IMG/VR virus record: IMGVR_UViG_2617270980_000004
Span: 1-27,269 of that record
Length of the DNA stretch: 27,269 nt
DNA from: a virus
Taxonomy: Duplodnaviria > Heunggongvirae > Uroviricota > Caudoviricetes
Reading direction: 5' to 3' (one strand)
Under the pieces are notes generated by a model, which saw nothing but the letters and a program-made list of their open reading frames with translations, made no database searches and had not been told where the DNA came from. The position numbers were made by a program, and so were the translations under genes. This document shows positions 6,353 to 19,012 of the stretch, in pieces. Numbering within the stretch: position 1 is the stretch's first letter; every line of letters starts with the position of its first letter.

Positions 6353-7039
6353 ATGACCCCAATAAAAATATTTATGACTATTGCTGATTTCAAACGGCCT
6401 AAATTGGAACTCCCAAACGGGGCAAACAAACTACTACTGCACTCTTGCTGTGCTCCATGTTCCGGTGAAGTGATGGAGGCGCTTCAGGCCTCGGGAATCG
6501 ACTACACCATCTTTTTCTACAACCCGAACATTCATCCTCAGAAAGAGTATTTAATTCGTAAGGATGAAAATATTCGCTTTGCTGAACAACACGGCGTGCC
6601 GTTTATCGATGCTGATTACGACACCGACAACTGGTTTGAACGTGCCAAAGGAATGGAATGGGAGCCTGAGAGGGGGATCCGTTGTACCATGTGTTTTGAC
6701 ATGCGTTTTGAGCGGACAGCGTTGTACGCTGCTGAAAATGGTTTCAGTGTGATCAGCAGTTCACTGGGCATTTCACGCTGGAAAAATATGCAGCAGGTTA
6801 ACGAGTGTGGGCGGCGAGCTGTTGCGCATTATCCGGGTATGGTGTACTGGGATTATAACTGGCGCAAGCAGGGCGGCTCGTCCCGTATGATTGAAATCAG
6901 CAAGCGCGAAAAATTCTATCAGCAGGAATATTGTGGCTGTGTGTATTCTCTGCGCGATACCAATCTACACCGCAAATCTCAGGGACGCCCTCTTATCAAA
7001 ATTGGCCAACTCCACTACGGAAAAGAAGAGAAGGAGTGA
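6353..7039 (+). CDS. QueH-like (DUF208) Fe-S protein, epoxyqueuosine reductase family (assignment from recalled motifs)
   Basis: Conserved cysteine clusters [20 protein letters not shown] and QEYCGCVYS. No clear Shine-Dalgarno; alternative start at 6374. Extended -10-like TGcTACACT upstream. Confidence 0.55.
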
Positions 7040-7217
7040 TTTTATGGATCACCTTTCTGATTGATTTCATATTGGCGAGGTGACGTGAGTTAAGTAGAAT
7101 TGCTGCGGGTGCCTGAGGCTGTCTGCCTCAGGCATGAACACCAAAAGGCAGATAGAGAAAGCCCCAGTTAACATTACGCGTCCTGTAAGACGCTCAACAT
7201 TAATCTGAGGCATATGG

Positions 7218-8342
7218 ATGCGGATGAAAGAATTAAATAAATTCAGAGTGATAGACCTCTTTTGTGGGGCAGGTGGATTATCTTATGGTTTTCTTCATGG
7301 AGAGATGTCTGACTACTTTGAAAGTATCCTTGCTATTGATAATAATGCTGCAGCTATAAATACCTACAATGCCAATTTTGGTTTGCATGGAGTTCAGGCA
7401 AATATTGAGGAGTGGGCATCCAGCAATACTGTTCCTGAGGCTGATGTGGTCATAGGTGGCCCCCCGTGTCAGGGATTCAGTTTATTAAATAAGAATCGTT
7501 ATGGTGATCACCGAAGAGCATTGTGGGAGCCTTATATGGATGTCATTGAGCGTTCAAGGGCTTGTATGTTCGTCATGGAAAATGTCCCCGGATTGCTGAT
7601 AAGCGATGAGTTTGCGGACATTACGTTTAGAGCGAAATCCATGGGCTTTATTCTGCTTAATCCAATGGTGTTGAATACTGCTGACTATGGAGTACCTCAG
7701 ACAAGAAAACGAACGATAGCAATCGGTATCAAACGAGAACTCTTCGATGTGCATAGTATTCCGGCGTTCCCGCCAGCACCAACGCATCGTTCCCCTGATA
7801 AGGATGTCGCTTTGCCTGAATGGGTCTGTACGCGTGATGCAATTGGTGACTTACCTGCTCCTGTTGGAACTGATATTCGTAATGAACTTCCTCCGCTGAA
7901 CTTACATTTTGGGCGTAATCCCACACCTGTTTCTTTGGAGCGATATAAAGCGGTTCCACCAGGAGGTAACCGTTTCGATTTACAGAAAAAAAGACCTGAT
8001 ATAACCCCGGCGTGCTGGCTAAAAAAGAAATCTGGAGGGACCGATTTGTTTGGACGTCTGTGGTGGGACAGACCTTCAGTAACGATTCGTACTGAGTTTT
8101 TCAAACCGGAGAAAGGGCGATATTTACATCCGGAAGAGGATCGGCCAATAACTCATCGTGAGGCAGCGAGATTAATGTCTTTTCCTGATAATTTCATTTT
8201 TACCGGTTCAAAAACTGAGATTGCAAAGCAGATCGGGAATGCTGTTCCACCGCTATTTGCGGCAAAAATCGCACAATATGTGTATGGAGTTTTGCAGGGA
8301 CGGTATAAGAATAACATCAGTAAGAATAGTCAAGCAGCCTGA
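7218..8342 (+). CDS. DNA (cytosine-5)-methyltransferase
   Basis: Canonical m5C motifs: I FCGAGGLSYGF, IV GGPPCQGFS, VI ENV, VIII QTRKR, X GNAVPP. Confidence 0.9.
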   Translation: MRMKELNKFRVIDLFCGAGGLSYGFLHGEMSDYFESILAIDNNAAAINTYNANFGLHGVQANIEEWASSNTVPEADVVIGGPPCQGFSLLNKNRYGDHRRALWEPYMDVIERSRACMFVMENVPGLLISDEFADITFRAKSMGFILLNPMVLNTADYGVPQTRKRTIAIGIKRELFDVHSIPAFPPAPTHRSPDKDVALPEWVCTRDAIGDLPAPVGTDIRNELPPLNLHFGRNPTPVSLERYKAVPPGGNRFDLQKKRPDITPACWLKKKSGGTDLFGRLWWDRPSVTIRTEFFKPEKGRYLHPEEDRPITHREAARLMSFPDNFIFTGSKTEIAKQIGNAVPPLFAAKIAQYVYGVLQGRYKNNISKNSQAA

Positions 8343-10743: not shown

Positions 10744-11118
10744 ATGCTCATAGATTTGGTTTTACCTTACCCGCCGACGGTGAACACTTACTGGCGACGC
10801 CGTGGCAGCACATATTTTATCTCGGAGGAGGGAAAGCGTTATCGCCGGGCTGTGGCGCTTATTGTTCGCCAGCAGCGGCTGAAATTAAGCCTGTCCGGAA
10901 GGCTGGCGATAAAGGTGATTGCAGAGCCACCGGATAAGCGTCGTCGCGACCTGGACAATATCCTGAAAGCACCGCTGGATGCGCTGACGCATGCGGGAGT
11001 GTTAATGGACGATGAGCAGTTTGATGAAATCAATATCGTTCGTGGTCAGCCAGTATCTGGTGGACGTATGGGGGTGAAGATTTACCCCATAATGCATGAA
11101 GAGCAGGTCAAAAAATGA
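10744..11118 (+). CDS. rusA: RusA-family Holliday junction resolvase
   Basis: RusA signature: N-terminal YPPTVNTYWRRRG and PDKRRRDLDNILKAPLDALTHAGV; AAGAGGTG Shine-Dalgarno. Confidence 0.85.
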   Translation: MLIDLVLPYPPTVNTYWRRRGSTYFISEEGKRYRRAVALIVRQQRLKLSLSGRLAIKVIAEPPDKRRRDLDNILKAPLDALTHAGVLMDDEQFDEINIVRGQPVSGGRMGVKIYPIMHEEQVKK

Positions 11119-11936
11119 AACTGGAAGATTTACCGAAATACTACTCCCCAAAATCCCCTGGCCTGACCGATGCATCGGCCTCAACGTCAAAAGATGCGCT
11201 GAGTATCACTGATGTGATGGCCGCGCAGGGCATGACACAGAATCGGGCTGAGATGGGGTTTTCTGCGTTCCTGGGGAAAATGGGCATCAGTATGAATGAC
11301 AGGGCGCGGGCAACAGAATTACTGGCAGATTATGCACTCAGTCGGTGCGATCGTGTGGCGGCGTTGAGAAAACTTCCGGCAGAAATAAAACCGGTAGTGA
11401 TGCGCATTATGGCTTCGTATGCGTTTGAAGATTATGCCCGTAGCGCGGCGAGCAAAAAACAGTGCCCCTGCTGTCACGGAAAAAAATTTATTGAAAGCGA
11501 GGTTTTTACAAACAAGATCCAGTATCCGGATGGTAAGCCACCAGTGTGGGCAAAGTGCACAAAAGGCGTGTATCCGTCTTACTGGGAAGAATGGAAAAAA
11601 GTCAGGGAGGTGGTAAAAGTTGCCTGTCCGGAGTGTGGCGGAAAGGGTGAGGTTTCCACCGCCTGTAAGGATTGCCGTGGGCGTGGTGTCGCCATTCATC
11701 GTGAAGAGTCGGTAAAACGTGGTATGCCTGTTATCAGAGATTGCCAGCGTTGTGGTGGTCGTGGCTGTGAAAGGCTGCCATCAACGGAGGCATTTAATGC
11801 CATATGCAAAGTGACGAGTGCTATCACGCTTGATACGTGGAAAAAATCAGTGAAACGCTTTTACGATACGTTGGTGGTTCGGTTTGACATTGAAGAGGCA
11901 TGGGCGGAGCGGCAGTTAAAGAGGGTAACGCGATAG
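11115..11936 (+). CDS. late-gene antiterminator Q (Cys-rich zinc-finger type)
   Basis: Start overlaps the rusA stop (ATGA); multiple CxxC pairs (CPCCHGKK, CPECGGKG, CKDCRGRG, CQRCGGRG); immediately upstream of a promoter plus terminator pair. Confidence 0.8.
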   Translation: MKLEDLPKYYSPKSPGLTDASASTSKDALSITDVMAAQGMTQNRAEMGFSAFLGKMGISMNDRARATELLADYALSRCDRVAALRKLPAEIKPVVMRIMASYAFEDYARSAASKKQCPCCHGKKFIESEVFTNKIQYPDGKPPVWAKCTKGVYPSYWEEWKKVREVVKVACPECGGKGEVSTACKDCRGRGVAIHREESVKRGMPVIRDCQRCGGRGCERLPSTEAFNAICKVTSAITLDTWKKSVKRFYDTLVVRFDIEEAWAERQLKRVTR

Positions 11937-11941
11937 TGTTG

Positions 11942-11970
11942 TTGATTTTTCCCGAATCTGTGGTAAATTT
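11942..11970 (+). promoter_or_regulatory. candidate late promoter PR' (-35 TTGATT, -10 TAAATT)
   Basis: Hexamers seen with about 16-17 bp spacing directly downstream of Q; not verified. Confidence 0.35.
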
Positions 11971-12018
11971 GCCCTAACGATGGGCGTTTTATGCCTGACG
12001 TTAGAAGATTTTTTACAC

Positions 12019-12040
12019 CCCGCCGCCTGGCGGGTTTTTT
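12019..12040 (+). terminator. tR'-like rho-independent terminator downstream of Q
   Basis: Stem CCCGCC/GGCGGG with GCCT loop, followed by TTTTTT. Confidence 0.65.
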
Positions 12041-12162
12041 ATGACTGAAATCGCGTCAGTACAGTAAACGCGCTGGTGGCGGTGAATACCTGTCTTTCAG
12101 CTTGCTGGCTTTTTCGACAAGAGTTATTGGTGTGTCACGTTAACCGGAAAAGGGAAAAAGAC

Positions 12163-12360
12163 ATGCTAAAACAGCAGGATATGACAGAAACCGCCAGAGT
12201 GGTGTTTAATGAATTAAGCGTTACCGAACCGGCGACAGTCGGGGAGATAGCGCAGAATACTTACCTTTCACGCGAACGCTGCCAGTTAATACTGACCCAG
12301 CTGGTTATGGCGGGTCTGGCAGACTATCAGTTCGGTTGTTACAGACGCCTTCCGCAGTGA
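12163..12360 (+). CDS. hypothetical small winged-helix-like protein, 65 aa
   Basis: Internal ATG with AGGGA Shine-Dalgarno; followed by hairpin GCCTTC...GAAGGC and a T-run at about 12338-12372. Confidence 0.5.
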   Translation: MLKQQDMTETARVVFNELSVTEPATVGEIAQNTYLSRERCQLILTQLVMAGLADYQFGCYRRLPQ

Positions 12361-12510
12361 AGGCTTTTTTATTTGTGGTAAATGGGCGGCTGGTGGGTGT
12401 TAGGGGCACCCACCAGCCATCTGCTCATGCGTTGGGTTCACAAGCAAACCTCAGGCCCACTGCTTTGCGCAAAAGCAGAATGAGCCTATCAGAGACAGGC
12501 TTAATGATCC

Positions 12511-13560
12511 ATGCTTAATACTGTAAAAATATCCAGTTGTGAGTTAATCAACGCCGACTGCCTGGAATTTATCCGGTCGTTACCCGAAAATTCTGTTGAC
12601 CTGATAGTCACGGACCCGCCGTACTTTAAAGTGAAGCCTGAAGGCTGGGATAACCAGTGGAAGGGCGACGATGATTACCTGAAGTGGCTGGACCAGTGTC
12701 TGGCGCAGTTCTGGCGGGTGCTGAAACCTGCCGGAAGTCTTTACCTGTTCTGTGGTCATCGCCTGGCATCTGATATCGAAATCATGATGCGTGAACGCTT
12801 CAGTGTGCTGAACCATATTATCTGGGCGAAGCCGTCCGGACGCTGGAACGGATGCAACAAGGAAAGCCTGCGGGCGTATTTCCCCGCCACAGAGCGCATT
12901 CTGTTCGCGGAACATTATCAGGGGCCGTATCGTCCGAAAGATGCCGGGTATGCGGCGAAGGGCAGTGCACTGAAACAGCATGTGATGGCCCCGCTGATTT
13001 CTTACTTTCGTGATGCGCGCGCGGCCCTGGGGATAACGGCAAAACAGATTGCAGATGTCACAGGAAAGAAAAACATGGTGTCGCACTGGTTCAGTGCCAG
13101 TCAGTGGCAGCTACCGAACGAAAGCGATTATCTGAAATTACAGTCGCTGTTTGCCCGGGTGGCAGAAGAGAAACATCAGCGCGGTGAACTGGAAAAGCCC
13201 CACCACCAGCTGGTGGATACGTATACGTCACTGAACCGGCAGTATGTGGAGCTGCAGAGTGAATATAAGCATCTGCGGCGGTATTTTGGTGTGACGGCGC
13301 AGGTGCCGTACACGGATGTGTGGACACATAAACCGGTGCAGTTCTATCCCGGGAAACATCCGTGCGAAAAACCGGCAGAAATGCTGCAGCAGATAATCAG
13401 CGCAAGCAGTCGTCCGGGTGACCTGGTTGCAGATTTTTTCATGGGGTCGGGTTCAACGGTAAAAGCGGCGATGGCACTGGGGCGTCGTGCGATTGGCGTT
13501 GAACTGGAGACCGGACGTTTTGAGCAGACAGTCAGGGAAGTTCAGGATTTAATCGTTTGA
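12511..13560 (+). CDS. DNA amino-methyltransferase (N6-adenine or N4-cytosine), DPPY family
   Basis: Motif IV DPPY near the N-terminus (LIVTDPPYF) and AdoMet-binding FMGSGST near the C-terminus, the beta-class order. Confidence 0.85.
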   Translation: MLNTVKISSCELINADCLEFIRSLPENSVDLIVTDPPYFKVKPEGWDNQWKGDDDYLKWLDQCLAQFWRVLKPAGSLYLFCGHRLASDIEIMMRERFSVLNHIIWAKPSGRWNGCNKESLRAYFPATERILFAEHYQGPYRPKDAGYAAKGSALKQHVMAPLISYFRDARAALGITAKQIADVTGKKNMVSHWFSASQWQLPNESDYLKLQSLFARVAEEKHQRGELEKPHHQLVDTYTSLNRQYVELQSEYKHLRRYFGVTAQVPYTDVWTHKPVQFYPGKHPCEKPAEMLQQIISASSRPGDLVADFFMGSGSTVKAAMALGRRAIGVELETGRFEQTVREVQDLIV

Positions 13561-13609
13561 AACGGATGAGATTGCAGAATTAATTACGCACCATTATTAT
13601 TCTGCTTCC

Positions 13610-13685
13610 GGCCCTTTAGCTCAGTGGTGAGAGCGAGCGACTCATAATCGCCAGGTCGCTGGTTCAAATCCAGCAAGGGCCACCA
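13610..13685 (+). tRNA. tRNA with CAU anticodon (resembles E. coli minor Ile tRNA ileX/ileZ by recall; Met not excluded)
   Basis: Cloverleaf folds by hand: acceptor GGCCCTT/AAGGGCC, D arm GCTC...GAGC, anticodon loop CTCATAA, T arm GCTGG TTCAAAT CCAGC, 3' CCA encoded. Confidence 0.85.
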
Positions 13686-13785
13686 TCACAAACCGCCATT
13701 AGCTTATCAGGAAGAGCAGACGACACGATAACAGGGTTGTTGGTGCGGGGGCGGGTCCCCGATGGCGGTCCATTATCGGTATTCA

Positions 13786-13862
13786 GCGTTGTTAGCTCAG
13801 CCGGACAGAGCAATTGCCTTCTAAGCAATCGGTCACTGGTTCGAATCCAGTACAGCGCGCCA
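13786..13862 (+). tRNA. tRNA-Arg (anticodon UCU)
   Basis: Cloverleaf folds by hand: acceptor GCGTTGT/ACAGCGC, anticodon stem ATTGC/GCAAT with loop CTTCTAA, T arm ACTGG TTCGAAT CCAGT, 3' CCA encoded. Confidence 0.85.
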
Positions 13863-13996
13863 TATTCATTCTTCCAGATTCCTTTCGGCAGAGCCTTATA
13901 CTGAAATATACCTGGCTCAGGATATTGTTGAAAATATTATATGTTTGTCAAAAATAAAAGTTCTGTTAAGTGTTGATTGAGTGTTTGTTATACGGT

Positions 13997-14326
13997 CTAA
14001 TGGTTTTTTCAGCATTAAATATTTATCATTCATATGGTGTGGGTAGAGTGAATATTGATGAGGCGTCGGGGTGTTTCATCCTTAGGCAGCGTATTGATAT
14101 AGTCAATGCAGAACGAGCAAAGGCCTTCAGCCGTTTGACAGTTTTGTTCTGTACTCCTGATCGTCTTTCGGGAAGAGACGTTATTATTCTGAATAGTGAT
14201 GCTATACAGAGGGTTTGCGATGAGTTCATGGTGGCTAATTCAGAATTATTTGCTCTTGTTCAGGAGTACAACAGAATAGCCAGGACCTGTGGTATGGATG
14301 AACTTCGGATTACTCATCTGGGGTAG
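13997..14326 (+). CDS. hypothetical orphan protein in the AT-rich cargo island (start uncertain: 13970 TTG, 13997 ATG or 14048 GTG)
   Basis: Open frame without a convincing Shine-Dalgarno; contains a near-exact copy of the OR-type operator. Confidence 0.35.
   Translation, partial: LMVFSALNIYHSYGVGRVNIDEASGCFILRQRIDIVNAERAKAFSRLTVLFCTPDRLSGRDVIILNSDAIQRVCDEFMVANSELFALVQEYNRIARTCGMDELRITHLG
14192..14206. promoter_or_regulatory. distal copy of the immunity operator motif, AATAGTGATGCTATA
   Basis: Matches the OR site at 2686-2700 at 14 of 15 positions. Confidence 0.35.
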
Positions 14327-14717
14327 ATACATATCTGGATTATCACCGGTTACGGTAAAAAGTGATTGCTTACTGTTTTTGTGAATGGCATTGCAGCAGC
14401 CGGATAATGTCAGTGCTGGCTGACGGTGTGCTGGTGGCGGGGGTGGTGGTTGCTGCTTTCCCGTTGCTGAAAAAGAAAACGCCAGACTGTTAGCCGGGTA
14501 TCAGTTAGCGGGAGAAATTTTTAAATACTTCACAATTCAGGCGGTTGACTGTTGTCTGGTTTGCGGGGAGTTTGTTAAAAGAAACTGGCATGGTGAATCC
14601 CCCTGTGCGGAGGGGCAATCAGCGAGTAGGTATATGGGATAATCGCGGATTCAGGTGCTGGTACTGAATTCACCGGGAGGCACCCGGCACCATGCAATGG
14701 CACATAGCGCCACTCTC

Positions 14718-14754
14718 CAGCCCCTCTCCGGAGGGGCTGTTTATATTGATTTTG
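14718..14754 (+). terminator. strong rho-independent terminator in the cargo island
   Basis: Perfect 9-bp stem CAGCCCCTC/GAGGGGCTG with TCCG loop, followed by TTTATATTGATTTT. Confidence 0.6.
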
Positions 14755-14773
14755 TCAGATGTGAGTAAACTCC

Positions 14774-15109
14774 TTATGGACTTTGTTGTTTTAGCCCATA
14801 AGGACATATTTGCAGAGTGCAACGGTTATTAAAGCATTCATTCAATACGTTATCTGTATTTGTAGGGCATTCCTGGCTGTTTTTGATTAAATTCCAGAAT
14901 GTTTTATTGAATGGTACTACGTTGTAAATGGTTACAGGCAGCACTTTGTTATTGAGCATGATGCCTGTGTGAGTCAGTGTAAATATACTTTCAGGAGGTA
15001 AGAAAGCATCCGATTGATACCAGATTATTAATTTTATTTTACTCCATATGACTGAAAAAGATATTCCGCATGATGGCTGGATAACTGTATCAATCACAAT
15101 CCACTTCAT
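14774..15109 (-). CDS. hypothetical orphan protein, 111 aa, Trp/Cys-rich, AT-rich codon usage
   Basis: AAGGAAA Shine-Dalgarno 5-6 nt upstream of ATG at 15109; AT-rich promoter-like region upstream; opposite in orientation to late transcription. Confidence 0.55.
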
Positions 15110-15369
15110 TTAGTTTCCTTGTTTATGCCTTGCTGGTGATGTTCTGAAAAGTATAAATGATATTTTTGATTGTAAACCATAGAGCAGAATTATTTTTCTG
15201 ATGTTGTTTATTGTTTATTTAAATGCAGGGTGGTTTATATCTCGTCTTGTAGTTTATCCATGCATATCTGCTTGATGATGAGGTTTTTAATTAAGGTATG
15301 GTTTTGTGTTTTTTCTGTATTACATGTCAGGTATTTTAAAGAATCATTTTTCAGATGGTGGAAAGAACC

Positions 15370-17226
15370 ATGGCATTTAAACACTATGATGTTGTCAGGG
15401 CGGCGTCGCCGTCAGATCTTGCGGAAAAGCTGACACATAAACTGAAAGAGGGCTGGCAGCCGTTTGGTAGTCCGGTGGCCATAACCCCTTATACCCTGAT
15501 GCAGGCGATTGCAGCAGAAGGTGATGTGGTCGTCAGTGGTGCAACTGAGCCGGAGTGGTACTACGTCATCGTACTGGCCGGGCAATCCAATGCCATGGCT
15601 TACGGTGAAGGGCTTCCGCTTCCGGATTCTTACGATGCGCCCCACCCACGCATTAAGCAACTGGCCCGTCGCAACACAGTGACTCCCGGTGGTAAAGCAT
15701 GCGCATTTAACGACATCATTCCGGCAGACCACTGCCTGCATGATGTTCAGGATATGAGCGCACTGAATCATCCGAAGGCAGACCTGAGCAAAGGGCAGTA
15801 CGGCTGTGTCGGCCAGGGCTTACATATTGCCAAAAAACTGCTTCCGTATATCCCGAATAACGCGGGGATCCTGCTGGTACCATGCTGTCGTGGTGGTTCG
15901 GCATTCACCCAGGGCGCGGAGGGGACATTCAGTGCGGACACGGGGGCCAGCCAGGATTCGGCACGCTGGGGTGTGGGTAAACCGTTATATCAGGACCTGA
16001 TCGCACGCACCAAAGCGGCATTACAGAAGAACCCGAAAAATGTGTTGCTGGCGGTGTGCTGGATGCAGGGCGAATTTGACATGAGCGCTGCCACCTACGC
16101 ACAGCAACCGGACCTGTTCACGGCCATGCTGAAGCAGTTCCGTACTGACCTTTCCGGATTTAACGCGCAGTGCCATGGCGGCAGTGCTGCAGTTGTACCG
16201 TGGATTTGTGGCGACACGACGTATTACTGGAAAAACACATACGGCACACAGTATGACTCCGTCTACGGCGCGTACAAAAACAGGGAGAGCGACAACGTTT
16301 TCTTTGTGCCGTTCATGACCGACGGTAACGGCAACAACACGCCCACCAACTTACCGGCAGAAGACCCGGATATTGCTGATGCAGGTTATTACGGCGCGCA
16401 ATCCCGTAGTAATGGTAATTGGGTATCGTCAAATCGTCCGACACATTTCAGTTCATGGGCGCGCAGGGGCATTATTTCGGATCGCCTGGCAACCGCTATT
16501 CTGAACGCAGTTGGTCGAACCAGCGCCTTCATCAGCGGTACCGCACCGGAGATTAAACCCTCGCCCGGCGGCGACACGCCATCGGGGCCGTCTGATGGTG
16601 ACACATCCGTTCGTACAGTCTCCCTGCTGCCGACAGCCGGAGAGGCTGCTGCGCAGGGCTGGACCATCACCGGCGGCAGTGTTGCGCTGGAAGATGGTGT
16701 GTTTAAGGTTACCAAGCAGAGCAATAAAACCTGGTCCCTGATGCATCCGGTGGATGACGCGGTCTCCCTGCTGACACGGGGTGGCAGACTGAGCTGTAAG
16801 TTTCGACTGTCAGGCGCACTGACCAACAACCAGTTCGGTCTGGGAATTTATCTGTATACCGATGTAGCGTTACCTGACGTCGTGGCGATGACCGGGACTG
16901 GTAACCCGTTCCTGATGTCGTTCTTCACCCAGACCACAGACGGCAAACTGAATCTGATGCATCACAAGAAAGCCGGAAACACAAAGTTGGGCGAGTTCGG
17001 GAATTACAGTAACGACTGGCAGACGCTGGAGCTGGTGTTCACCGCCGGCAGTGCCACGGTTACTCCGAAACTGAATGGAGTGGCTGGCCCGGCATTCCAG
17101 GTCATAAAAGACAGTCTGACACTGGGGCTGAATGCGCTGACGCTGACGGATATTACCAAAAATGCAGCGTATGGCGTTGAGATAGAAAGTCTGGTGCTGG
17201 AGATAAATGCACCGGCATCATCATAA
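15370..17226 (+). CDS. NanS-p-like sialate O-acetylesterase (N-terminal DUF1737-like segment, SASA/SGNH esterase domain, C-terminal extension)
   Basis: GQSN esterase motif in VLAGQSNAMAYGEG; size and position (between the tRNA/cargo locus and the holin) match the nanS-p gene of Stx phages as I recall it. Confidence 0.8.
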   Translation: MAFKHYDVVRAASPSDLAEKLTHKLKEGWQPFGSPVAITPYTLMQAIAAEGDVVVSGATEPEWYYVIVLAGQSNAMAYGEGLPLPDSYDAPHPRIKQLARRNTVTPGGKACAFNDIIPADHCLHDVQDMSALNHPKADLSKGQYGCVGQGLHIAKKLLPYIPNNAGILLVPCCRGGSAFTQGAEGTFSADTGASQDSARWGVGKPLYQDLIARTKAALQKNPKNVLLAVCWMQGEFDMSAATYAQQPDLFTAMLKQFRTDLSGFNAQCHGGSAAVVPWICGDTTYYWKNTYGTQYDSVYGAYKNRESDNVFFVPFMTDGNGNNTPTNLPAEDPDIADAGYYGAQSRSNGNWVSSNRPTHFSSWARRGIISDRLATAILNAVGRTSAFISGTAPEIKPSPGGDTPSGPSDGDTSVRTVSLLPTAGEAAAQGWTITGGSVALEDGVFKVTKQSNKTWSLMHPVDDAVSLLTRGGRLSCKFRLSGALTNNQFGLGIYLYTDVALPDVVAMTGTGNPFLMSFFTQTTDGKLNLMHHKKAGNTKLGEFGNYSNDWQTLELVFTAGSATVTPKLNGVAGPAFQVIKDSLTLGLNALTLTDITKNAAYGVEIESLVLEINAPASS

Positions 17227-17311
17227 AAAGTGAGCCAGTCAAATGGAAGGTATCGTTAAACTCACCGGTAGTGTCAGTGGGTCGTCTGAGATGCCTGCAT
17301 GAGTTATCAGA

Positions 17312-17341
17312 GCCATCAGTACTTAACTGGTGGCTTTTTTT
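17312..17341 (+). terminator. terminator-like hairpin between the esterase gene and the holin
   Basis: Stem GCCATCAG/CTGGTGGC (one G-U pair) followed by TTTTTTT. Confidence 0.5.
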
Positions 17342-17376
17342 ATTGTTGTCAGCTTCCGGATAACGGGAGACGGGGT

Positions 17377-17592
17377 ATGTACCAGATGGAAAAAATCACA
17401 ACAGGTGTGTCATACACCACGTCAGCGGTGGGAACGGGCTACTGGTTCCTGCAGTTGCTGGACAGGGTTTCCCCGTCTCAGTGGGCGGCAATAGGCGTGC
17501 TGGGGAGTCTGCTGTTTGGGCTGCTGACATATCTGACTAACCTGTATTTCAAAATCAGAGAGGACCGTCGTAAGGCTGCACGGGGAGAGTAA
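17377..17592 (+). CDS. S: pinholin, phage 21 S-type, 71 aa, with dual-start motif MYQM
   Basis: C-terminal [40 protein letters not shown] matches S21-type pinholins by recall; GGGAGACGGGG Shine-Dalgarno; paired with a SAR endolysin downstream. Confidence 0.85.
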
Positions 17593-17596
17593 TTCA

Positions 17597-17941
17597 ATGA
17601 CTCAAAACTATGAACTGATTGTGAAAGGGATCCGCAATTTTGAGAATAAAGTTACGATAACTTTAGCGTTACGGGACAAAAAACGCTTTGACGGTGAAAT
17701 TTTTGACCTGGACATCTCGCTGGACCGTGTTGAAGGTGCCGCGCTGGAGTTTTATGAGGCAGCAGCCAGAAGGAGCATCAGACAGGTCTTCCTGGATGTT
17801 GCTGCCGGGTTATGTGAAGGGGATGAGCAGTCGCCGGAAAAGCGCCCCGTAATTTTAGAGGCGCAGGATGTGTTGATAACCTACAGAGGAAAACTACCGG
17901 GAATAATTACGGGTTCTCTGAAGAGTCCGCCGAAATGGTAA
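17597..17941 (+). CDS. YdfR-like (DUF826) protein located between holin and endolysin
   Basis: N-terminus MTQNYELIVKGIRNFENKVTITLAL resembles Qin-prophage YdfR as I recall it; starts 4 nt after the holin stop. Confidence 0.7.
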   Translation: MTQNYELIVKGIRNFENKVTITLALRDKKRFDGEIFDLDISLDRVEGAALEFYEAAARRSIRQVFLDVAAGLCEGDEQSPEKRPVILEAQDVLITYRGKLPGIITGSLKSPPKW

Positions 17942-18179
17942 TTTTACCAGCATATTTTTCATCCAGTAATACAGCAAGCCGCCTGAAAGAGTCTTGTTGT
18001 TCCTGAGACCATTTGGGATTGCATGATTCAAACTGGATTGATGCCAGCGTTGATTGCATCTGTTCCCTTGGAATTGAGAATGCCAGATATGAGAAGGCGA
18101 CGGTAAGGGTATTCACGTCTTCCCGAAGCCTGGAAATGCTGTCGAGCAACTCCTGTAGAGAAATGGTGTTATTGTCCAT
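17907..18179 (-). CDS. hypothetical 90-aa protein encoded antisense to the lysis operon
   Basis: GAGGA Shine-Dalgarno 6 nt upstream of ATG at 18179; its 3' end overlaps the 3' end of the YdfR-like gene by 35 nt. Confidence 0.45.
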   Translation of the reverse strand: MDNNTISLQELLDSISRLREDVNTLTVAFSYLAFSIPREQMQSTLASIQFESCNPKWSQEQQDSFRRLAVLLDEKYAGKITISADSSENP

Positions 18180-18284
18180 AAATAATCCTCATGATTGTAT
18201 TGACCTGTTAGCAGCCTGAGGCAACAGGCTGGAACTGATAAACATATCCAGGGCTCAGAAACCGATAAATCCTGATAAATATCC

Positions 18285-18818
18285 ATGAACGCAAAAATCA
18301 GATACGGCCTGTCGGCTGCCGTTCTGGCGCTGATTGCCGCTGGTGCGCCTGCGCCTGACATTCTCGACCAGTTTCTGGATGAAAAGGAAGGTAACCACAC
18401 CACGGCATACCGTGATGGCGCGGGTATCTGGACCATCTGCCGCGGTGCCATCCTGGTGGATGGCAAACCTGTCGTTCCGGGCATGAAGTTGTCGAAGGAA
18501 AAATGCGACCGGGTTAACGCCATTGAGCGTGATAAGGCGCTGGCATGGGTGGAGAAAAACATCAAAGTGCCATTGAGCGAACCCCAGAAAGCGGGGATCG
18601 CGTCATTCTGTCCGTACAACATTGGTCCCGGTAAGTGTTTCCCGTCGACGTTTTATAAACGAATTAATGCAGGTGATCGCAGGGGAGCGTGTGAGGCGAT
18701 TCGCTGGTGGATTAAGGACGGTGGCAGAGACTGCCGTATTCGTTCAAACAACTGCTACGGTCAGGTATCCCGTCGTGACCAGGAGAGCGCGCTGGCGTGC
18801 TGGGGTATCGACAGATAA
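18285..18818 (+). CDS. R: SAR endolysin (lysozyme R with N-terminal signal-anchor-release domain)
   Basis: N-terminal SAR-like hydrophobic segment YGLSAAVLALIAAGAPAP followed by a lysozyme core (EGNHTTAYRDGAGIWTICRG); close to phage 21/Stx-phage R by recall. Confidence 0.9.
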   Translation: MNAKIRYGLSAAVLALIAAGAPAPDILDQFLDEKEGNHTTAYRDGAGIWTICRGAILVDGKPVVPGMKLSKEKCDRVNAIERDKALAWVEKNIKVPLSEPQKAGIASFCPYNIGPGKCFPSTFYKRINAGDRRGACEAIRWWIKDGGRDCRIRSNNCYGQVSRRDQESALACWGIDR

Positions 18819-18911
18819 GCAGAATATTTTGCTGAAAAATGCGGTTTGCTTACACGGACGGATAACACGAAATCCTGCGAACTGACAAAAACTAAGTGAA
18901 TAAAAGTAAAA

Positions 18912-18947
18912 ACCCCGTTTGTTGGCAGCAAGCGGGGTTTTGTTTTT
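18912..18947 (+). terminator. rho-independent terminator immediately after the endolysin
   Basis: 10-bp stem ACCCCGTTTG/CAAGCGGGGT (one G-U pair), loop TTGGCAG, then TTTGTTTTT. Confidence 0.6.
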
Positions 18948-19012
18948 ATGGCAGTAAGCTATGGGAGGCTGCCTTGATTGATTTTAGCAAACTGATTAGG
19001 GAGTTGCGACTC

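Follow-up and report, generated by a model that had tools for sequence, protein, structure and literature searches.

A full-length STnc100-family small RNA gene in a lambdoid prophage, with a covarying pseudoknot in its core and a variable 3' cassette

Identification of an STnc100-family locus

The stretch of DNA analysed here, called the window below, covers positions 1 to 27,269 of the IMG/VR virus record IMGVR_UViG_2617270980_000004 (27,269 nucleotides, nt). It is a lambdoid prophage, and in its late "cargo" region an original prediction, made from the letters alone, had flagged a candidate structured small RNA that ends at a terminator. By its match in Rfam, the flagged locus is a small non-coding RNA (sRNA) gene and an intact, ordinary copy of the STnc100 prophage sRNA family. 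When the whole window was compared with Rfam at the curated thresholds, the family RF02076 (STnc100) matched end to end at 14559-14748 on the plus strand with 132.4 bits (threshold 47, E 3e-29), spanning model positions 1-206 of 206 without truncation, while no other Rfam family resembling the element appeared even at E <= 10. Our own covariance model, R1, matches 14588-14697 with 120.6 bits. The full-length match to a curated model at this E value, a fold z score of -2.98 and the covariation of the helices described below together place the observed signal far beyond chance.

RF02076 carries the full name "Gammaproteobacterial sRNA STnc100" and is a curated, published family of Salmonella and Escherichia coli prophages, so that the element, being an intact copy of a widespread catalogued family, is already known. 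The published STnc_100 primers for quantitative PCR (PMC12370729) are exact matches to window positions 14590-14609 and 14663-14682. Of 5426 complete E. coli genomes, 2860 contain parts of the flanking stretch of 447 base pairs (bp), with as many as 12 places in a single genome. The proposal of a discrete, structured non-coding transcript is well supported, as the copy is a full-length RF02076 member and homologues are seen as discrete RNAs on northern blots or by RNA sequencing (RNA-seq) in enterohaemorrhagic (EHEC) and enteropathogenic (EPEC) E. coli (PMC5331693, PMC8550237, PMC7873438).

Homologues were collected by scanning public collections for the exact pattern CATGGTGAATCCNCC-N60-90-CGGGAGGC, which yielded 12 genuine and 5 chance loci in species-representative genomes and at least 119 viral contigs. 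The five chance loci among these 17 genome matches (Streptomyces, Lentisphaerae, Rhodobacteraceae, Comamonadaceae and one metagenome-assembled genome, MAG) show no similarity beyond the pattern and were dropped. The genuine genome loci belong to E. coli, E. albertii, E. ruysiae, Shigella, Klebsiella spallanzanii and Enterobacter, together with some short contigs bearing odd labels. The matches fall into 53 clusters at 94% identity, 48 of which are genuine once the chance ones are removed. A covariance model was then built from 38 variants, and its search of all loci also recovered copies without the pattern. All homologue counts given below (48 clusters, 61 sequences, 133 and 96 loci) are counts among the matches listed.

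Real STnc100 or PasD copies (48-114 bits) also lie on contigs labelled Xanthomonas pisi (L019, 888 bp), a Veillonella MAG (L016, 3 kb) and a Proteobacteria MAG (L008, 2.9 kb). These copies on short contigs are probably E. coli prophage DNA that contaminates the assemblies.

The features of the predicted gene, all on the plus strand, are as follows.

14552-14581, plus strand: putative sRNA promoter (sequence reading, conservation, alignment with the PasD promoter)
14588-14748, plus strand: predicted STnc100-family sRNA, about 160 nt (5' end by PasD2 homology; 3' end in the U-tract after the terminator)
14588-14695, plus strand: conserved core, a four-helix junction (minimum free energy fold, pair counts on 61 homologues)
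14588-14595 with 14688-14695, plus strand: P1, the closing helix (pairs changed on both sides, 5 of 8)
14600-14604 (CCCCT) with 14611-14615 (AGGGG), plus strand: P2 (pairs changed on both sides, 3 of 5)
14618-14623 (AUCAGC, just 3' of P2) with 14657-14662 (GCUGGU, P4 loop), plus strand: pseudoknot, 6 bp including one U-G
about 14624-14646, plus strand: P3 region, short or absent in the window
14647-14654 with 14664-14671, plus strand: P4 (pairs changed on both sides, 8 of 8)
14673-14677 (CCGGG) with 14683-14687 (CCCGG), plus strand: P5 (invariant, both-side changes in 0 of 5)
14696-14717, plus strand: variable 3' cassette AAUGGCACAUAGCGCCACUCUC, candidate base-pairing seed (position comparison among homologues)
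14718-14747, plus strand: intrinsic terminator (terminator scan, fold, RF02076 model positions 166-206)

Structure and covariation of the conserved core

The minimum free energy (MFE) fold of the plus strand has -69.5 kcal/mol, with a z score of -2.98 against dinucleotide shuffles, and reproduces the helices of RF02076, namely the closing helix, P2, P4, P5 and the terminator. Fold energy was discarded as a discriminator of the strands, being uninformative (z = -2.98 for the plus and -3.59 for the minus strand). The assignment to the plus strand is instead based on the T-run, the G-U pairs in the covarying helices and the Rfam match; in the homologue alignment, G-U pairs replace G-C and A-U pairs in the plus sense only.

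Pair counts were run on 61 distinct homologue sequences, with a control in which the partners were slid by 1-3 columns. Across these sequences 94.8% of the cells are paired, compared with 35-46% for the slid partners, and 22 of the 32 pairs are changed on both sides. P1, P2 and P4 covary among the homologues, and P5 is invariant. Both the fold energy and the pair counts bear out a structured RNA; folding and covariance analysis were among the checks that the original prediction had named. The three GC-rich hairpins it described are present where it had placed them, corresponding to P2, P5 and the stem CAGCCCCTC...GAGGGGCTG at 14718-14739, but these are only three of the six helical elements, P1, P4 and the pseudoknot having been missed.

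The nucleotides of the junction and loops (AAUC, GNGCGG, UCA and GGGAGGCA) are nearly invariant from Escherichia to Klebsiella and Enterobacter. The P3 region forms a second variable insert, which in other variants is a hairpin of 5-7 bp.

Covarying pseudoknot

The core is locked by a covarying pseudoknot between the segment just 3' of P2 and the loop of P4. All six of its pairs show both-side changes among the 61 homologues, and 87.4% of the cells are paired, which is an underestimate because in both the MAFFT and the model alignments the CTGGTG class of pseudoknot is misaligned by one column. The alignment model used for the pair counts did not include the pseudoknot pairs.

At least seven pseudoknot alleles covary, including ATCAGC/GCTGAT, ATCAGT/ACTGAT, AATGAC/GTCATT and the PasD allele AATGAT/ATCATT, and further CTGGTG with CACCGG, CACCAG or TACCAG, TGGTGT/ACACCG and CTGATT/AATCAG. 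Pairing also occurs, with the register shifted, in the versions from Enterobacter (CTGGCT/AGCCAG) and from Klebsiella (TCCAGC/GCTGGG), and a Shigella-type variant has a nested helix, GAUACC/GGUAUC, in place of the pseudoknot. With the loop 6-mer anchored, a perfect 6-bp match is found in 49 of 59 distinct sequences, and partners taken from another class match in 8.9% of cases. Ten of 18 distinct allele pairs are perfect, where shuffling the 5' segment gives an expectation of 0.2 and a maximum of 3. Duplexes formed with the own partner average -7.95 kcal/mol, compared with -3.99 +/- 0.79 for permuted partners, and none of 20000 permutations equals this value.

A looser test, which allowed G-U pairs and wide windows, was abandoned as too permissive, since 39% of mismatched pairs also scored 6/6, and was superseded by the permuted duplex energies, the anchored 6-mers and the pair counts. 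In a 2026 preprint using RNAalifold, which had already proposed a common ancestor for PasD and STnc100, the pseudoknot goes unmentioned (bioRxiv 10.64898/2026.05.13.724894).

Some prophages carry tandem STnc100-family arrays with two to four copies within about 1 kb. The largest, on contig L024 (2324-3350, minus strand), has four copies within about 1 kb that differ in their pseudoknot alleles and P1 sequences. On L027 (3150-3743), L036, L045, L055, L085 and L094, two good copies flank a degenerate third one (30 bits).

Promoter and transcript ends

The predicted promoter consists of a -35 element TTGTCT (14552-14557), a 17-nt spacer and a -10 element TTAAAA (14575-14580). The original prediction had pointed to these hexamers as weak and promoter-like; they turn out to be conserved and align with the promoter of the EPEC homologues PasD1 and PasD2 (TTGACT-17-TTAAAA). 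Of the 48 cluster representatives, 35 keep the arrangement TTGnCT, 16-18 nt, T(T/A)AAAA, with diverging spacer and flanks, and 33 keep TTGTTA(A/G)AA. It reads as a conserved promoter of the sigma-70 type, and a generic promoter scan of the window did not list it. An alternative -10 element is TAAAAG (14576-14581) with an extended -10 TG at 14573-14574, the resulting TGnTAAAAG (14573-14581) giving an extended -10 promoter reading 6 nt ahead of G14588. A TTGACT at 14545-14550 overlaps the promoter region.

PasD2 is annotated at NC_011601 741157-741328, with a 5' end taken from RNA-seq (PMC8550237). Its first base (741157) is the G of GCAUGGUG, which aligns with G14588 of the window, and on this alignment the 5' end is placed at 14588. 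The RNA would thus extend for about 160 nt, from 14588 to about 14748. The Rfam model begins 29 nt upstream of 14588 and hence includes promoter sequence.

Variable 3' cassette and terminator

The segment that links the 3' strand of P1 to the terminator occurs among the homologues in at least 12 mutually unrelated versions, 16-60 nt long, suggesting that the conserved core carries interchangeable 3' "seed" cassettes. The window cassette, AAUGGCACAUAGCGCCACUCUC, is the commonest version among the matches listed; it may fold into a small hairpin (UGGC...GCCA) followed by the single-stranded, C/U-rich CACUCUC(C). The equivalent segment of PasD holds the seed UGUGAG, derived from the sequencing of ligated interacting RNAs (RIL-seq) (PMC8550237), and 14696-14717 would be the seed of the window copy.

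The terminator is a 9-bp stem, CAGCCCCUC-UCCG-GAGGGGCUG (14718-14739), followed by UUUAUAUU. The terminator with a T-run that had been predicted is therefore present, the stem being followed by TTTATATT, but "canonical" is too strong a word for it: as the T-run is interrupted, the terminator is good and not a textbook one.

The 3' strands of P2 (GGAGGGGC, 14610-14617) and of the terminator (14732-14739) have the same sequence, and P2 could in principle compete for the 5' strand of the terminator. The identity may be a coincidence or an old duplication, since terminators vary among the homologues without matching changes in P2.

Genomic context

The neighbouring features of the late region are listed below.

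11115-11936: Q antiterminator
12511-13560: DNA methylase
13610-13685: tRNA(CAU)
13786-13862: tRNA-Arg(UCU)
13970-14326, plus strand: open reading frame (ORF) of 118 amino acids (aa) between the tRNAs and DUF3927, without a Pfam or NCBIfam match
14362-14493, plus strand: small hydrophobic DUF3927 ORF, 43 aa (Pfam ID PF13064, 92.7 bits)
14774-15109, minus strand: convergent iraM homologue (NCBIfam ID NF007393, 162 bits, cut-off 121; RefSeq annotation)
15355-17226: SASA/NanS-p-type esterase
17299-17592: holin

A prophage of E. coli FORC_069 is 99.8% identical and annotated in the same way, and the synteny is also kept in E2348/69, EDL933 and VT2-Sakai. The cargo site is the place where Shiga toxin (Stx) phages carry stx.

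The stretch 14327-14773 had been described as lacking any ORF of 60 aa or more on either strand. This holds (the longest has 50 aa), but the stretch is not all non-coding, because its first 170 bp contain a real small gene, as indicated by the Pfam match of the DUF3927 ORF at 14362-14493 and its RefSeq annotation. This ORF directly precedes the sRNA promoter. The annotations of FORC_069, E2348/69 and EDL933 show DUF3927 at the equivalent place, and in 56 of 133 homologous loci it is found no more than 450 nt upstream of the sRNA. The 118-aa ORF is not annotated in the FORC_069 prophage, and a similar sequence is found upstream of the sRNA in 18 of the 133 loci.

On the other side, the stop codon of iraM lies 35 nt past the sRNA terminator. 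IraM is an anti-adaptor of RssB and protects RpoS. A convergent iraM follows downstream in 29 of 96 homologous loci, and an esterase follows within 2.3 kb in 79 of the 96. Transcripts of iraM may run antisense into the sRNA gene, because the hairpin read on the minus strand has no U-run. In the Stx2 phage VT2-Sakai, the slot filled here by iraM is held by the anti-sRNA AsxR.

Published homologues and related systems

Few prophage sRNAs in EHEC and EPEC are as abundant or as multiplied as STnc100, which adjoins stx2 in Stx phages. Homologues accumulate in lysogens as discrete, abundant transcripts of about 160-210 nt and co-purify with Hfq. All 11 STnc100 copies of EDL933 are transcribed, with about 100-1900 reads per kilobase per million mapped reads, and STnc100_4 was confirmed by northern blot (PMC5331693). 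One EDL933 prophage holds an STnc100 copy in the same synteny as the window. An attempt to map STnc100_4 by its published coordinate was dropped, as the coordinates belong to another EDL933 record, NC_002655. In Salmonella LT2, RpoD binds STnc100 promoters (PMC10794520), and STnc_100 was found in outer membrane vesicles of Shiga toxin-producing E. coli (PMC12370729).

The copy downstream of stx2 is EcOnc27/sRNA103, known from northern blot and from cross-linking and cDNA analysis with Hfq (Hfq-CRAC) (PMC7873438; PMC12711010). It shares its helices, promoter, terminator and the late-region site upstream of a SASA/NanS-p esterase with the window. In the Stx2 phage VT2-Sakai the copy scores 207.7 bits; its P3 insert is longer, it follows stx2B at a distance of 75 nt, and AsxR is convergent directly behind its terminator. 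The window, by contrast, lacks stx, and its copy has a short P3, is preceded by a DUF3927 ORF and faces a convergent iraM instead of AsxR.

PasD1 and PasD2 (EcOnc13) of EPEC are abundant, were detected by northern blot and form Hfq RIL-seq chimeras with many mRNAs; they are the most abundant of the Pas RNAs and among the most abundant sRNAs altogether (PMC8550237). They share with the window the promoter layout, P1, P2, P4 and the pseudoknot (allele AAUGAU/AUCAUU), and also the order DUF3927, sRNA, esterase or holin. They differ in falling short of the RF02076 threshold, with 41 and 38 bits, and in a rearranged 3' side of P5 and P1, a 3' cassette that is longer and holds the seed UGUGAG, and the terminator GGCUGCGCAUGGCGCGGCC. 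The window copy is therefore an STnc100-type relative of PasD and not PasD itself, as neither its cassette AAUGGCACAUAGCGCCACUCUC nor its terminator is related to the PasD counterpart. RNA-seq of a delta-hfq strain gave log2 fold changes of -0.18 for PasD1 and +0.55 for PasD2, neither significant (PMC8550237, Table S2), and PasA, PasB, PasC, McaS and CpxQ fall 4- to 150-fold (PMC8550237). The main text of that study claims Hfq-dependent stability for all Pas sRNAs, with which the PasD values of Table S2 sit uneasily.

The anti-sRNAs AsxR and AgvB (Rfam IDs RF02703 and RF02702) occupy the same lambdoid cargo region and form "dyads" with STnc100-family genes (PMC7873438), but they are unrelated in sequence and structure, measure about 55-60 nt and lie on the opposite strand. 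Neither was matched at E <= 0.1 in window positions 11000-19000, and the same search finds AsxR in VT2-Sakai with 88 bits.

In SreA/SreB of Listeria and EutX/Rli55 of Enterococcus and Listeria, a structured, conserved 5' domain is followed by a terminator, giving a stable, short trans-acting RNA. STnc100 shares this architecture, but it is not known to have a ligand, an aptamer class or a gene controlled in cis, and its core matches no riboswitch family, with zero Rfam riboswitch matches even at E <= 10.

The family as such has already been described. What the present analysis adds is the pseudoknotted four-helix core and the set of at least 12 swappable cassettes, a modest, family-wide addition. 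The covarying pseudoknot, the near-invariant junction and these cassettes provide handles for finding the partners of the scaffold and the targets of the cassettes.

Possible function and alternative explanations

We think it probable, with some reservation, that the locus is a gene for a trans-acting STnc100-family sRNA in which a stable structured scaffold presents a variable base-pairing seed. In the lysogen, transcription of the window sRNA would start at its own promoter and end at 14739-14748, and Q-modified polymerase coming from pR' would read through the sRNA terminator. The core, with its base-paired 5' end, would act as a nuclease-resistant scaffold and make the RNA stable, while the single-stranded, C/U-rich part of the cassette, CACUCUCC, would be the part that pairs in trans with mRNAs of the host or of a prophage. 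From one prophage to another the scaffold would stay the same and the seed would differ. An intrinsic stability of the scaffold is supported by the PasD RNAs, which are abundant and unreduced in delta-hfq.

Several points weigh against such a function. The evidence for expression, 5' ends and binding comes from homologues and not from the window variant, and the literature offers no established function or direct target for any STnc100-type RNA or cassette, only indirect effects on fimZ and espA being reported for sRNA103 (PMC12711010; PMC7873438). A search for complementarity between the cassette and the translation-initiation regions of window genes gave nothing beyond shuffled seeds (best z -2.4). 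The claim of a classical Hfq sRNA is weakened by the Hfq-independent levels of PasD, and the U-tract UUUAUAUU is interrupted and poorer than in typical Hfq-dependent sRNAs. Finally, the pseudoknot and the invariant junction and loop bases exceed what stability needs, which hints at a partner of the core's own.

This last point leads to a possible, if doubtful, alternative, in which the core is itself the functional unit, a module that specifically binds a protein (CsrA, ProQ or a nuclease, for instance) or a small ligand. The RNA would then serve mainly as a decoy or sponge, as a guide that carries whatever the core has bound to the targets the cassette selects, or as a sensor resembling a riboswitch. 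A covarying pseudoknot, covarying P1 and P4 and near-invariant junctions and loops are typical of tertiary-folded RNAs with a partner, the abundance of PasD is independent of Hfq, and PasD2 heads the CsrA-associated chimeras, its chimera with the yjbJ 3' untranslated region being the most abundant at about 20% of chimeric reads (bioRxiv 10.64898/2026.08.12.744399). Loops containing GGA are present in P2 and P5; the A of the P2 "GGA", however, varies among homologues (A, U or C), so that it is not a conserved CsrA motif and a CsrA site at P2 is weakened. The core also lacks a match to any riboswitch or other Rfam family. A binding module is compatible with a trans-acting sRNA and does not exclude it. 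If true, STnc100 would be a phage-borne "programmable" RNA with one effector- or sensor-binding scaffold and interchangeable targeting cassettes, in up to a dozen copies per genome.

The layout of promoter, structured domain and terminator resembles that of riboswitches and attenuators, and the esterase follows in most loci (79 of 96), at only 86 nt in the case of PasD2. A cis-acting leader or attenuator, which controls or insulates the downstream late genes (esterase, lysis cassette) and leaves the sRNA as a termination by-product, would fit these features, as would the GGAGGGGC strand of P2, which could in principle compete at the terminator. We regard this as unlikely. In the window, the convergent iraM stands between the terminator and the esterase, which leaves no co-directional gene within 600 nt and makes such a role improbable here; the terminator varies from one variant to the next while P2 shows no matching changes; and the terminated RNAs of homologues are abundant, bound to Hfq and chimeric in trans. 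The accumulation of terminated family members also led us to reject a put-like RNA for processive antitermination, as such RNAs bypass the next terminator.

An interplay with the gene on the opposite strand, by convergent transcription or antisense pairing, would involve iraM here and AsxR in the dyads of Stx2 phages. It is suggested by the position of AsxR on the opposite strand right after the STnc100 terminator of VT2-Sakai (PMC7873438), by the end of iraM 35 nt from the terminator and by the missing U-run of the minus-strand hairpin. We give it little credence, as the opposite-strand partner varies (AsxR- or AgvB-like, iraM or none) over a constant sRNA core, and window positions 11000-19000 hold no AsxR or AgvB.

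That the locus encodes a small protein, for example from the ATG at 14692, is hardly credible. ORFs of 37-50 aa overlap the element, a GGGAGG lies 10 nt upstream of this ATG, some EDL933 copies have ribosome footprints with ribosome-coverage values of up to 3.2 (PMC5331693), and RefSeq/PGAP annotates pseudo "hypothetical protein" fragments over homologous stretches, on the minus strand here. Both this start codon and the GGGAGG, however, are buried in P1 and P5, and unrelated cassettes follow downstream of the ATG. We rejected this explanation on three grounds: the compensatory P1 variants CGCCAUAU, CACCACGC and CACCAGAA lose the ATG, the ORF from 14692 runs through the terminator with no stop inside the transcript, and the substitutions track base-pairing and not codons.

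Further observations on the prophage

Between the two tRNA genes lie 100 nt (13686-13785) with acceptor-like ends, CCGCCAU...AUGGCGG, which neither ARAGORN nor Rfam calls a tRNA. They may represent a degraded or unusual middle tRNA of the argN type, a possibility raised by related prophages, which carry three adjacent tRNA genes at this place (Ile, Arg, Arg).

At 7107-7287 on the plus strand, a sok antisense RNA of a hok-type type I toxin-antitoxin locus is matched (Rfam ID RF01794, 61 bits, threshold 59), and hokD is annotated at the equivalent place in the FORC_069 prophage. The plus-strand gene at 6353-7039 codes for an enzyme of tRNA modification, the epoxyqueuosine reductase QueH (Pfam, 221 bits), on a prophage that also has its own tRNA genes.

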